Below are positions 47,271 through 52,621 of a stretch of 64,000 nt of DNA, piece after piece. Each line of letters opens with the position of its first letter. Within the stretch, counting starts at the first letter, position 1. The notes below the pieces were generated by a model. The model did not search any database. It saw nothing but the letters and a program-made list of their open reading frames with translations, and had not been told where the DNA came from. Both the position numbers and the translations under genes were made by a program. Source of the DNA: Piscinibacter sp. (GTDB lineage Bacteria; Pseudomonadota; Gammaproteobacteria; Burkholderiales; Burkholderiaceae_C); NCBI RefSeq assembly GCF_041496605.1, contig NZ_JBGQEX010000003.1; one strand, 5' to 3'.

Positions 47271-47418
47271 CGGCCGCGGCCGATCTTTCCACGCGCGCGC
47301 CGACCGGCCCCGATCCAGCCCTTAAAATTCGCCCCTTCGGCTGGACATTTCGTCGCCCGACGGAAAACAGTTTGTCGCAACAGGCGGGCCTGGCGGTCCA
47401 ACGCAGGAGAAGTCATCG

Positions 47419-48141
47419 ATGGCCGGTCATTCCAAATGGGCAAACATCCAGCACCGCAAGGGGCGTCAGGACGAAAAACGCGGCAAGGTCTGGACTCGCG
47501 TGATCCGCGAAATCATGGTCGCGGCACGCCAGGGCGGCGGTGACGTCAAGGACAACCCGCGTCTGCGCCTGGCGGTGGAGAAGGCCAAGGCCGCCAACAT
47601 GCCGGCCGACACTGTCAAGAAGAATATCGACAAGGCCACCGGCAACCTCGAGGGCGTGAGCTACGAGGAGATCCGCTACGAGGGCTACGGCATCGGCGGC
47701 GCGGCGATCATCGTCGACTGCATGACCGACAACCGCGTGCGCACCGTGGCCGAGGTGCGCCACGCCTTCAGCAAGTACGGCGGCAATCTGGGCACCGAAG
47801 GCTCGGTGGCGTTCCAGTTCAAGCATGTCGGCCAGTTCGTGTTCGCGCCGGGCACCAGCGAAGACAAGGTAATGGACGTGGCGCTCGAAGCCGGCGCCGA
47901 CGACGTGATCACCGACGACGACGGCGCCGTCGAGGTGCTGTGCGCGCCGCCCGACTTCGAGGCGGTGAAGAACGCGCTCGAAGCGGCGGGCCTGAAGCCC
48001 GAGGTCGCCGAGGTGACGATGCGCGCCGAGAACACCGTCGCGCTCGCCGGCGAGGACGCGCAGCGCATGCAGAAGCTGCTCGACGTGATCGAAGACCTGG
48101 ACGACGTGCAAGACGTGTTCCACAACGCCGACATTCAGTGA
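47419..48141 (+). CDS. YebC/PmpR family DNA-binding transcriptional regulator
   Basis: [23 protein letters not shown] is the canonical N-terminus, in a 240-aa protein. Confidence 0.95.
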
Positions 48142-48172
48142 GTCGTGATTCGTGAATCGTGAATCGTGATTC
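48138..48172. repeat. five tandem heptamers GTGAnTC (left arm of an inverted heptamer array)
   Basis: GTGAGTC GTGATTC GTGAATC GTGAATC GTGATTC. The yebC-family TGA (48139-48141) lies inside the first unit. Confidence 0.95.
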
Positions 48173-48587
48173 GAAACCCGTTCCGTCAACGCACCGCGAC
48201 CTCGACGCGTGGAAGAAGTCTGTTGGCATGGCGCGCCTGGTGTACGAGGAAACTGCGGTCTTTCCGAAGCCGGAACAGTTTGGTCTGACACATCAGATGA
48301 GGCGAGCCGCAGTTTCGGTGGCGTCGAACATTGCAGAAGGCGCCGGGCGCAGGTCGAGCCGCGAGTTCGTTCAGTTTCTCAGCATCAGTGCGGGGTCGTT
48401 GGCCGAGCTTGACACGCAGATGGAGATTGCTGCTCAACTGGGCTACCTTTCGCCGCAGAGTTCCTTGTGGTCGGCTCGGGATGATGTTGCGCGTCTGGTC
48501 ATCGCACTGCGTCAATCGATACAGCGACGCGTCGAGCAACAGCTCGGCGCCCCTCGAATCACGAATCACGAATCACGAATCACATGA
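48159..48587 (+). CDS. four-helix-bundle protein (23S rRNA intervening-sequence protein family)
   Basis: DLDAWKKSVGMARLVYEETAVFPKPEQFGLTHQMRRAAVSVASNIAEGAGRRSSREFVQFLSISAGSLAELDTQMEIA is the family hallmark as I recall it (PF05635/TIGR02436). The start is uncertain because the GTG at 48159 lies inside the repeat. The stop overlaps the purD ATG. Confidence 0.85.
   Translation: MNRDSKPVPSTHRDLDAWKKSVGMARLVYEETAVFPKPEQFGLTHQMRRAAVSVASNIAEGAGRRSSREFVQFLSISAGSLAELDTQMEIAAQLGYLSPQSSLWSARDDVARLVIALRQSIQRRVEQQLGAPRITNHESRIT
48556..48583. repeat. four tandem heptamers GAATCAC (right arm, reverse complement of GTGATTC)
   Basis: GAATCAC x4, exact. It ends one base before the purD ATG at 48584. Confidence 0.95.
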
Positions 48588-49864
48588 AAGTTCTAGTCAT
48601 CGGCGCGGGCGGACGCGAGCATGCGCTGGCGTGGAAACTCGTCCAGTCGCCCAAGGTGCAATCGGTGTACGTGGCGCCCGGCAACGGCGGCACGGCCATC
48701 GACAACCGGCTGCACAACGTTCCGATCACCGACTTCCATGAACTCGCCGACTTCGTGCAGACCGAGAAGATCGCGTTGACGGTGGTCGGGCCTGAAGGGC
48801 CGCTGGCGGCCGGCGTGGTCGACGTGTTCCGCGAACGTGGCTTGCGTGTGTTCGGCCCGACCAGGGCTGCCGCGCAGCTGGAAAGCTCCAAGGCCTTCGC
48901 GAAGGAGTTCATGAAGCGGCACAAGATCCCGACGGCCGCCTACGAAACCTTCGTCGACGCGGCCAAGGCGCATGCCTATGTCGACGCCAAGGGCGCGCCG
49001 ATCGTCATCAAGGCCGACGGGCTGGCGGCCGGCAAGGGCGTGGTCGTGGCCACCACGCTCGTGCAGGCGCACGAGGCCATCGACTGGATGCTGCAGGACA
49101 ACAAGCTCGGCGTGCAGCACAACGAAGGCGGCGCCCGGGTCGTCATCGAGGAGTTCCTCGAAGGCGAGGAAGCCAGCTTCATCGTGCTGTGCGATGGCAA
49201 GAACGTCATTTCGCTGGCTACCAGCCAGGACCACAAGCGCCTGCGCGACAACGACGAGGGCCCCAACACCGGTGGCATGGGCGCCTATTCGCCGGCGCCG
49301 GTGGTGACGCCCAACGTGCACGCGAAGGTGATGCACCAGATCGTGCTGCCCACCGTCCAGGGCATGGCCCGCGAGGGGATTTCGTTCACCGGTTTCCTCT
49401 ACGCCGGCCTGATGATCGACGCCTACGGCGACCCGCGCACGGTGGAGTTCAACTGCCGCCTCGGTGACCCCGAGACGCAGCCGATCATGATGCGGCTCAA
49501 GAGCGACCTGTTCGACGTGCTGGTGCATGCCGCCGACGGCACGCTCGACCAGGTCGAATTGCACTGGGATCGCCGCGTCGCGCTGGGCGTGGTGATGGCC
49601 GCCGAGGGGTACCCATTGAACCCGCGCAAGGGCGACTTGGTGACCGGCTTGCCCCACGAGGCAGCCGACGCGGTGGTGTTCCATGCCGGCACCGCGCTGC
49701 GCGGGCACGAGATCGTGACCGCGGGCGGGCGCGTGCTGTGCGTCACCGCCATGGGCGATTCGGTGAAGCAGGCGCAGCAACGGGCCTACGACACCTTGCA
49801 GGGCATCCACTTCGATGGCGCGCAGTTCAGGCGCGACATCGGGCACCGTGCGATCAAACGCTGA
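48584..49864 (+). CDS. purD: phosphoribosylamine--glycine ligase
   Basis: MKVLVIGAGGREHALAWKL, with full-length PurD similarity and an ATP-grasp fold. Confidence 0.97.
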   Translation: MKVLVIGAGGREHALAWKLVQSPKVQSVYVAPGNGGTAIDNRLHNVPITDFHELADFVQTEKIALTVVGPEGPLAAGVVDVFRERGLRVFGPTRAAAQLESSKAFAKEFMKRHKIPTAAYETFVDAAKAHAYVDAKGAPIVIKADGLAAGKGVVVATTLVQAHEAIDWMLQDNKLGVQHNEGGARVVIEEFLEGEEASFIVLCDGKNVISLATSQDHKRLRDNDEGPNTGGMGAYSPAPVVTPNVHAKVMHQIVLPTVQGMAREGISFTGFLYAGLMIDAYGDPRTVEFNCRLGDPETQPIMMRLKSDLFDVLVHAADGTLDQVELHWDRRVALGVVMAAEGYPLNPRKGDLVTGLPHEAADAVVFHAGTALRGHEIVTAGGRVLCVTAMGDSVKQAQQRAYDTLQGIHFDGAQFRRDIGHRAIKR

Positions 49865-49900
49865 GCCTGCCTTTCACACGCTGAGCCTGCCATTCACACG
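49861..49900. repeat. 20-bp tandem direct repeat spanning the purD stop codon
   Basis: CTGAGCCTGCCTTTCACACG followed by CTGAGCCTGCCATTCACACG (one mismatch). Confidence 0.9.
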
Positions 49901-49905
49901 CCCAC

Positions 49906-52009: not shown

Positions 52010-52621
52010 ATGGACATTCGTAAACTGCAACGCGCCATCGTCGATGGTCTGGAAGACGTGAAAGGCCACAACATTGCGGTCTTCAACACCGAGCATCTGT
52101 CGCCGCTGTTCGAGCGGGTGATCATCGCCTCCGGTACCAGCAACCGGCAGACCAAGGCGCTTGCCGCCAGTGTGCGCGACGCGGTCAAGTCCAGGGGCTT
52201 CGGCGTCACGCGCACCGAGGGCGAAGACAACGGCGAATGGATCATCGTGGATTGTGGTGCGGCCGTCGTGCACGTGATGCAGCCGTCGATTCGCGACTAT
52301 TACCACCTGGAAGAAATCTGGGGCGACAAGCCGGTGAAGATGAAGATCGACACCGCGCCGGTGAAGCTGGTGAAGGCCGCTGCGCCGCAGAAGGTGGCGT
52401 CGACCAAGGCACCCGCGAAGACTGCGCCGCCAAAGAAGGCCCCCGCGAAGAAGGCCGCGGTGAAGAAGACCGTGGCAAAGAAAGCGCCGGCGAAGAAGGC
52501 GCCGCCCCGGACCGGGGTCACGCGAACCGTGGGTGTGAAGAGCGCGGCCGCCAAGAAAGCGCCGGCCAAGACGGCGCCGGCAAAGAAGTCGGTTGCGAAG
52601 ACCGCAAGCCGCCGCGCGTGA
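52010..52621 (+). CDS. rsfS: ribosome silencing factor RsfS with C-terminal Lys/Ala/Pro-rich extension
   Basis: The N-terminal ~112 aa match RsfS/YbeB ([19 protein letters not shown]...[16 protein letters not shown]). A ~90 aa AKKAP-type tail follows. Context is nadD-rsfS-rlmH. Confidence 0.88.

Follow-up and report, generated by a model that had tools for sequence, protein, structure and literature searches.

The spacer between yebC and purD in a Piscinibacter sp. genome raises the question of why a small gene bracketed by inverted arrays of a seven-nucleotide unit should fill the space between two housekeeping genes. The DNA analyzed was a stretch of 64,000 nt from contig NZ_JBGQEX010000003.1 (RefSeq assembly GCF_041496605.1), referred to here as the window. 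Intervening sequences (IVSs) of rRNA that carry an S23p open reading frame (ORF) have been known since about 1990, and an initial annotation of the window, made from its letters and ORFs alone, compared the spacer with such IVSs. We found that the window holds a real IVS-type PF05635 cassette outside rRNA, in an mRNA spacer. Our reading, to which we give a probability of about 0.6, is that a compact cassette, consisting of a PF05635 gene between inverted heptanucleotide arrays, lies in the transcribed yebC–purD spacer and works in the manner proposed below.

The cassette fills the spacer from the yebC stop to the purD start and contains only one ORF between its arms (Table 1). The yebC stop codon (TGA, 48139–48141) falls within the first heptamer of the left arm, and the GTG at 48159, in the fourth heptamer and 18 nt past that stop, starts the cassette ORF. 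Because of an in-frame TGA at 48153–48155, this GTG is the sole possible start upstream of the conserved N-terminus. At the other end, the right arm is translated as part of the ORF (C-terminus ...APRITNHESRIT), whose stop TGA overlaps the purD ATG. The arrays encode the N-terminal 5 and the C-terminal ~10 residues of the protein, for which disorder was predicted. No Shine-Dalgarno sequence precedes purD at this locus. The arms form a 30-nt inverted repeat with 93% complementarity, and the minimum free energy (MFE) fold of 48120–48600 placed their pairing as the outer stem, a predicted helix of ~30 bp with two A.A mismatches. The five GTGAnTC units with the yebC stop in the first, the four exact GAATCAC units adjoining the purD ATG, the ORF reading through them into ATGA, and the stem with A.A mismatches had all been described in the initial annotation, and the sequence and the predicted fold agreed with each of these descriptions.

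The arrays are unusual within the window. A two-unit heptamer pattern (at most 2 mismatches) matched the window seven times, all within the two arms, whereas shuffled sequence gave a mean of 0.36 matches and reached seven in 0 of 100 shuffles. Tandem Repeats Finder (TRF) assigned a period of 7 with 5.7 copies to the left arm and 4.1 copies to the right, which places both among the tandem intergenic heptanucleotide repeats of at least three copies known as long simple sequence repeats (LSSR) or short tandemly repeated repetitive (STRR) sequences. TRF and a separate period-7 scan of the window retrieved no further array of comparable quality, and no second copy of the cassette was present in the window. 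An Rfam search of 47300–49000 gave no rRNA and no family match in or around the cassette.

Table 1. Coordinates of the yebC–purD interval and its cassette in the window.
Feature	Position	Strand	Basis or remark
yebC (TACO1/YebC family)	47419–48141	+	ORF list; PF01709 E 7.6e-61, PF20772 E 4.7e-31
Left arm, five tandem heptamers	48138–48172	+	GTGAGTC GTGATTC GTGAATC GTGAATC GTGATTC
Inverted repeat, 5' half (30 nt), predicted stem strand	48145–48174	+	93% complementary; MFE outer stem; duplex dG -48.8 kcal/mol
Cassette ORF, 142 aa, PF05635/TIGR02436 four-helix-bundle protein	48159–48587	+	ORF list, family HMMs
Inverted repeat, 3' half	48554–48583	+	Includes right arm 48556–48583
Right arm, four exact GAATCAC	48556–48583	+	Abuts purD ATG 48584
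ATGA, cassette ORF stop overlapping purD start	48584–48587	+	Sequence, ORF list
purD (phosphoribosylglycinamide synthetase)	48584–49864	+	PF01071, PF02844, PF02843

The product of the cassette ORF had been assigned by eye to the four-helix-bundle family, and searches with profile hidden Markov models (HMMs) upheld the assignment (PF05635, E 5.5e-32 and 110.6 bits against a cut-off of 33.8; TIGR02436, E 1.1e-30 and 106.1 bits against a cut-off of 24). The closest homologue of solved structure was XCC0516 (PDB 2GSC), with a profile E of 3.9e-45 and 49% identity over the structural alignment. An AlphaFold2 model (pLDDT 91.2) predicted four helices at residues 16–32, 43–62, 67–93, and 102–130. When this model was searched with Foldseek, it matched 2GSC (root-mean-square deviation 0.8, TM score 0.92–0.94) and 2RLD (TM 0.75–0.84), and it also matched the structures 4DWL (TM 0.83) and 8UB7 of Avd, a protein of diversity-generating retroelements (DGRs). 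The PDB entries 2GSC and 2RLD each contain five chains, and by analogy with them the cassette protein would form a homopentameric toroid. Homology with the pentameric proteins XCC0516 and Avd makes nucleic acid a probable ligand of this basic protein (pI ~10), and its own stem or arrays a possible one. An Avd pentamer holds an RNA stem-loop using all five protomers (bioRxiv 10.1101/2023.10.23.563531).

Purifying selection acts on the cassette protein, as dN/dS among the yebC–purD cassette orthologues was 0.08–0.15. The synonymous divergence of the gene was ~3 times that of its flanks. Its composition is foreign to the flanks and persistently AT-shifted: the GC content at third codon positions (GC3) was 0.64–0.70 in the cassette gene versus 0.90 in yebC and purD, which was true of all four orthologue lineages. 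No homologue of the protein was found in GenBank phage records, and PADLOC gave no defense-system match for the cassette.

The arrangement recurs widely. A total of 80 genome loci encoding relatives of the protein (Proteobacteria, Bacteroidota, Acidobacteriota, Planctomycetota, Verrucomicrobiota, and others) were chosen by ranked similarity, and the DNA near each PF05635 gene (within ~200 nt) was compared with the remainder of the same loci. Period-7 arrays occurred at 1.18/kb near the gene versus 0.11/kb elsewhere, corresponding to a ~10-fold enrichment, and arrays with periods of 4–6 and 8–12 at 0–0.08/kb. At least one array was found at 56 of the 85 PF05635 genes, and 32 of the 85 had arrays on both sides. 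In 30 of these 32 two-armed loci, the consensus units of the two arms were reverse-complementary when one mismatch was allowed, compared with 5.9% for arms paired across loci. The unit itself varied by locus (CGTGAAA, GGTTTTC, GAGTGAG, CAGTGGT, TAGTGGT, and GGGAATG among the examples), and a typical arm had 4–5 units (median 31 nt), with the arms spaced 350–500 nt apart, leaving room for the ORF only. We define the proposed class by period-7 arrays on both sides within ~100 nt of the gene, reverse-complementary units, and arms 350–500 nt apart; the window cassette belongs to it. In 80 of 82 cases, the GC content of the PF05635 gene fell below that of the flanking DNA. A 23S rRNA signature lay within 3 kb of none of the 80 loci; the class thus reaches well beyond rRNA operons, outside which the initial annotation knew of no described element class of this kind.

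The association also appeared when the arrays in these loci were taken as the starting point: 40 of 42 non-redundant inverted pairs spaced 300–650 nt apart contained a PF05635-like ORF, two of which were divergent members located elsewhere in the loci that had not been the basis for choosing them. For the 28 loci without a detected array, significant flank-to-flank complementarity was observed in eight, and the degenerate arrays of a Xanthomonas vasicola locus (L058) were missed by the detector; thus, the array-bearing fraction is at least two-thirds. A separate, untruncated collection of 33 viral-contig loci included 18 with an array near the gene (1.05/kb near versus 0.22/kb far). As a control, 327 kb of cassette-free related yebC loci contained no period-7 array.

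The history of the site was examined in 80 metagenome relatives of the window YebC (77–93% identical), 74 of which had the purD start within the contig. Both genes were adjacent in 73 of the 74, with spacers of -7 to 270 nt (at most ~160 nt in 70), and one gap was 1.9 kb. None of the 74 relatives held a PF05635 gene or an array remnant. The cassette-free relatives have GGAGG ahead of the purD ATG. The closest of them (L087, L089, and L092) share a common spacer of 79–93 nt (e.g., L087 3218–3300) with a conserved GC-rich hairpin (CCGGCCTCC...GGAGGCCGG) that holds the purD Shine-Dalgarno sequence and is absent without trace from the cassette-bearing lineages.

The cassette was found in the window's own lineage, including four 100% identical metagenome contigs, and in more distant carriers: L005 (YebC 91% and cassette protein 73% identical), L169 (partial YebC, 89%), and L166/L167 and L168 (YebC 69%, cassette protein 57–60%). 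The yebC stop was supplied or abutted by the array in L005, L166, and L168, in which the ORF ended in ATGA on the purD start; L005 also had a GTG start inside the array, and in L169 the ORF stop lay a few bases ahead of the purD ATG. The arm units differed by lineage, being GTGATTC/GAATCAC in the window and L005, GTGATCC/GGATCAC in L166 and L168, and GTGATCG/CGATCAC in L169. The calculated arm–arm duplex energies of the orthologous cassettes ranged from -37 to -67 kcal/mol. The two arms have therefore undergone compensatory change at the orthologous site; covariation was judged by unit-level complementarity because tandem arms pair in several registers.

These comparisons support a discrete and patchily distributed cassette that most close relatives lack, and since orthologues share the spacer in lineages with YebC only 69% identical, it is not a recent insertion. 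In a neighbor-joining tree of YebC, a single protein too weak to decide the history, the carriers were interspersed among cassette-free lineages, which leaves three histories to choose from: the cassette was gained long ago and lost several times without a scar, it was gained repeatedly in this spacer, or it was exchanged as an allele via the conserved flanks. The suggestion of a discrete, possibly mobile module therefore held in part. The spacer does vary by presence and absence among relatives, as the module idea would have it, but the cassette is old and the spacers gave no target-site signature. With no target-site duplication, no transposase, and no second copy in the window, mobility may be inferred from the sequences at most.

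The mechanism that we propose begins with transcription. The cassette would be co-transcribed with yebC and purD and ride on host transcription, because a promoter scan gave no promoter-like site inside it, the one terminator-like hairpin inside the ORF was weak, short, and within chance expectation, and PF05635 genes tend to follow the direction of their neighbors (both neighbors co-directional in 46 of 70 loci and both opposed in 6). An exception to this co-orientation was observed on plasmid pNe_5 of Nostoc edaphicum (L205 602–1098), where nrdB and nrdA flank a PF05635 cassette with TAGGGAG/CTCCCTA arrays whose orientation opposes that of the two genes. Once transcribed, the arms would pair as a duplex of ~30 bp that sets the cassette RNA structurally apart, and such pairing is, by comparison with known elements, the best-supported role of the arms. 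The paired arms may be an RNase III substrate, with the cassette RNA possibly excised from the host transcript, because the homologous IVS of Coxiella, with its 28-bp stem, is cut by RNase III. As the tandem units can pair in several registers, slippage would not destroy the stem.

Translation would add a second layer at the window locus, in a chain that leads from the array, with its yebC stop and ORF start, to the ATGA on purD. Here purD seems to have lost its own ribosome-binding site, and ribosomes are probably handed over from yebC to the cassette ORF and from there to purD. This handover is proposed because purD lacks the GGAGG that cassette-free relatives have, and because of the stop and start within the array and the ATGA overlap. 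Translating ribosomes would open the stem en route, which would make the cassette harmless and purD expression dependent on it. The protein, for its part, probably binds nucleic acid.

Several observations weigh against this proposal. RNase III cleavage and co-transcription are both read from the DNA, and a DNA hairpin or cruciform, or templated repair from arm to arm, would equally yield the covariation of the arms. The position of the ORF stop relative to the right array, determined in 47 cases, was before it in 32, inside it in 11, and beyond it in 4, so that the read-through noted in the initial annotation is peculiar to this lineage, the coupling chain is local, and read-through as a class-wide property was rejected. 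The ORF of the Coxiella IVS was judged dispensable (PMC4990558), while the cassette ORF here is conserved. Arms were undetectable at roughly one-fourth to one-third of the PF05635 genes. At 45 cassette borders, the direct repeat was 0 nt in 24, 1 nt in 16, 2 nt in 4, and 3 nt in 1; there was thus no consistent target-site duplication (0 nt at the window cassette), and no mobility enzyme was found. The proposal accounts neither for the period of seven nor for the strong strand asymmetry of the arms, each of which is G-rich and C-poor when read 5' to 3' toward the cassette (38–42% G and 10% C across L006–L085, L171–L203, and the window). Shine-Dalgarno-like motifs were not enriched in the entering arms, and neither they nor stop codons account for the G-richness.

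The arrays also occur by themselves. A set of 30 viral-contig loci, chosen by the presence of GTGATTC x3 or GTGAAAC x3 alone, carried 74 arrays and no PF05635-like ORF, which likewise counts against the proposal and led us to reject the idea that the arrays are exclusive to the family. These contigs sometimes had 6–12 arrays each, of several unit types, between ordinary genes, and the inverted pair of one (L214) enclosed an unrelated ORF of ~52 aa. Gene-less short inverted pairs were found at L015 722–956, L041 6119–6330, L182, and L185. The PF05635 gene predicts arrays, and arrays do not predict the gene. Two of these loci are worth describing. In the 6-kb locus L015 (700–5600) of a Desulfobacterales metagenome-assembled genome, two PF05635 cassettes have the units GGTTTTC and GTTTTCT, and the gene-less pair has a third unit (AAAGTTC/GAACTTT, arms 167 nt apart). 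L230 (1300–6500) is part of a 9.7-kb phage-like contig (IMG/VR 3300018080_005493) with 12 period-7 arrays of at least six units, which lie between small genes and include an adjacent inverted pair (1313–1385) and interleaved pairs of different units (3913–3943/4770–4800 with AATATTC/GAATATT and 4312–4340/4996–5021 with CGTGAAA); it has no PF05635 gene. That heptamer arrays as such abound among the repeats of bacteria has been reported before (PMC4692102, PMC4679880), and Xanthomonas has ~186 of them, 70 in inverted pairs (PMC4692102).

Among the alternatives, the one that survives best regards the arrays as frame-independent translational adaptors, with arm pairing secondary; we consider it possible, if on balance unlikely. 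As a period of 7 is not divisible by 3, the TGA or GTG of each unit is shown in all three frames, and the cassette would stop incoming ribosomes and restart translation in whichever frame the cassette has landed. The window array, which supplies both the yebC stop and the ORF GTG ahead of a purD that has no Shine-Dalgarno sequence, speaks for such a function. Comparable positions were seen elsewhere: in 20 of 41 loci the array contained the in-frame stop upstream of the ORF, in ~15 it contained the start codon, and many cassettes start directly past the stop codon of the upstream gene. Published repeats behave similarly, with a mean distance of 28 nt from array to upstream ORF (Rehm et al., PMC4692102) and with the TAACTGA repeats of Beggiatoaceae ending 1 nt ahead of start codons (PMC4679880). 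However, stop and start codons alike are missing from many units, the arms show no enrichment of Shine-Dalgarno-like motifs, and stop codons on the entering strand numbered 26 against 20.2 expected with unit composition preserved (P = 0.02), a weak enrichment. The three-frame stop hypothesis thus found weak support once composition was preserved, and the dearth of stops on the leaving strand was a matter of composition. The adaptor function does not account for the complementary downstream arm, which was kept in 30 of 32 loci. GTGA-type units may moreover be over-represented through the ranking of the 80 loci. The units had a GTGA core in 40% of the genome set and seldom in the viral set, on which grounds this core was rejected as universal; its frequency probably reflects relatedness together with a ranking bias from the array-encoded tail of the query.

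A function at the DNA level is a rather doubtful alternative. The inverted arrays would then act as DNA, for example by forming hairpins or cruciforms, by binding protein as iterons, or by serving as recombination or template-switching substrates; through them the cassette would be gained, lost, inverted, or copied, and the RNA stem would be a by-product. Arm-to-arm concerted evolution is what templated repair in a DNA hairpin would give, and the patchy presence among close relatives, whose cassette-free spacers bear no array scars, would fit such gain and loss. Gene-less short inverted pairs, the 70 of 186 Xanthomonas arrays in inverted pairs, and an AT-shifted gene of the kind typical of mobile DNA are further points in its favor. 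Nevertheless, the 45 borders gave no target-site duplication, no transposase or recombinase lies near the cassette, inverted repeats yield inversion rather than excision, and the cassette has been kept in the same spacer through a long divergence (YebC 69%). The orientation bias with the neighbors (46 versus 6) points to a constraint at the level of the transcript.

A more novel reading, which we regard as improbable at present, holds that the heptanucleotide arrays of bacteria have the PF05635 pentamers as their dedicated partner. One protomer would read one 7-nt unit, an idea suggested by the typical arm of 4–5 units (~31 nt) and the presumed pentamer, and the protein would maintain, homogenize, or spread the arrays together with its own cassette, much as repetitive extragenic palindrome (REP)-associated tyrosine transposases (RAYTs) do with REP sequences. 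If true, this reading would unite the ORF-bearing rRNA IVSs, the cyanobacterial STRR, Xanthomonas GGGAATC, and Beggiatoa TAACTGA repeats, and the excess of heptanucleotide repeats in bacteria.

It is very unlikely that the cassette is an ordinary lineage-specific fixed gene beside slippage-prone simple repeats, with no functional link to the arrays, which would be intergenic repeats that merely happen to be frequent in certain genomes. Among the long simple repeats of bacteria, those with a heptanucleotide unit are the commonest (cited in PMC4679880; PMC4692102), numerous arrays have no PF05635 gene, and the cassette is old and stable at the yebC–purD site, all of which a chance neighborhood would allow. 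It would not produce the 10-fold local enrichment, confined to period 7, over other intergenic DNA of the same loci, which was replicated in the independent viral-contig set, nor the absence of arrays from 327 kb of related DNA and from the rest of the window, nor arms that are paired and co-vary, with compensatory changes at the orthologous site. Least credible of all is a DGR remnant or accessory gene (an Avd), as the similarity in sequence is weak (NF033474, E 0.0039 and 17.5 bits, far under the cut-off of 80; PHROG 'Avd protein of DGR', E 2e-9), no reverse transcriptase is among the neighboring genes, and XCC0516 and BT_0352, neither of them a DGR protein, match best, in spite of the structural match to 4DWL and 8UB7.

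The genes around the cassette encode a Trans_reg_C/TPR regulator, YebC, PurD, an acyltransferase, coproporphyrinogen oxidase, and a PF01467 cytidylyltransferase-like protein (cut by the locus end), and no transposase or recombinase was found among the genes near the cassette. Two other repeats were noted downstream. A 20-nt direct repeat (CACACGCTGAGCCTGCCwTT, 2.4 copies) at 49854–49901 extends from the purD stop region, duplicates the stop-codon context, and ends 4 nt short of the ATG (49906) of the acyltransferase gene, which is next after purD. The ORF at 52010–52621, RsfS/iojap-like by eye alone, has a Lys/Ala/Pro-rich C-terminal tail of the KAPAKK type encoded by 15-nt tandem repeats at 52406–52587.

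The IVS-type reading of the cassette, if true, would give a handle on the function of PF05635 proteins and the origin of IVSs, and would bear on why the repeat period is seven. It would also imply that PF05635 genes found in operons (cas, acc, nrd, and pur) are probably passengers and not functional partners, which calls for caution among annotators. The essential purine gene purD appears, from its sequence context, to depend on translation of a passenger ORF, which would be a simple route to an element that is hard to lose.

Among known systems, the closest are the 23S rRNA IVSs with an ORF (Coxiella burnetii, Leptospira, and Brucella; PMC4990558). These share with the cassette an S23p/PF05635 protein in the loop, terminal inverted repeats with a stem of 28–30 bp, tandem heptamers of variable number before the ORF, a GC content lower than that of the host, and a size of ~430–450 nt. 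The IVS of C. burnetii in particular has a 28-bp terminal stem and, before its S23p ORF, 3–4 tandem heptamers (GACAGAT) whose number varies by strain; its GC content is below that of the host, and an RNase III cut was mapped to the first heptamer (PMC4990558). The likeness to IVSs asserted in the initial annotation thus extends to the stem, the heptamers, and the ORF. The differences are that IVSs lie in helix 9, 25, or 45 of 23S rRNA, whereas the cassette lies between two protein-coding genes; that the cassette ORF is conserved (dN/dS ~0.1) and probably translationally coupled, whereas the Coxiella ORF was judged untranslated and decaying; and that RNase III cleavage was shown in Coxiella and is presumed by analogy for the cassette.

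A second, independent stop-to-start case is provided by the X. vasicola orthologue of XCC0516. In X. campestris, the corresponding 4-unit GGGAATC array lies 6 nt past bccP and has a 17-nt overlap with the start codon of XCC0516 (PMC4692102 supplement), and the X. vasicola orthologue (L058) fills the accB–accC spacer from stop to start between GGGAATC and reverse-complementary GGGAATG arrays, the same layout as in yebC–purD with another heptamer unit and another host operon. This orthologue (NCPPB 2417, L058 2971–3444) is apparently frameshifted near the run CAGCCAGCAGCCAGCAG, with the C-terminal helix continuing in another frame, and is either a pseudogene or the result of a sequencing error. 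Most of the ~186 Xanthomonas arrays are not beside a PF05635 gene, whereas the window has only two arrays; the GGGAATC arrays have been treated as G-quadruplex-forming repeats and not tied to the PF05635 family (PMC4692102).

The cyanobacterial STRR/heptamer repeats and the Beggiatoaceae TAACTGA repeats are likewise intergenic tandem 7-nt units in 3–8 copies that often abut start or stop codons (PMC4679880; bioRxiv 10.1101/2022.06.06.494920), but published accounts present them as scattered direct repeats suspected of acting in regulation, without paired inverted arms or a partner protein. Avd has the same fold (TM 0.83), is basic, and binds an RNA stem-loop encoded beside its own gene; the cassette locus differs in having no reverse transcriptase, template, or variable repeats, and the pentameric barrel is a feature of Avd. 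REP/RAYT systems and miniature transposable elements with inverted repeats (MITEs) resemble the cassette in that one protein gene is flanked by an inverted short repeat that is also dispersed and found in gene-less pairs in some genomes. However, the cassette arms consist of variable tandem heptamers instead of a conserved palindrome, HUH and transposase motifs are missing from the protein, and the cassettes show no target-site duplications, their mobility being conjectured from sequence.

Full-text searches, which did not extend to subscription journals, gave no paper linking PF05635 to heptamer arrays beyond the single-species Coxiella note, and this widespread gene–repeat association appears not to have been drawn together earlier. 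PF05635 genes also occur inside cas operons (PMC3936711), and these, together with the gene between nrdB and nrdA of Nostoc, are best read as passengers. The comparison as a whole indicates that the S23p-ORF IVSs of rRNA and the scattered PF05635 genes are one type of element, which can occupy any transcribed spacer and has heptamer arrays as its arms.

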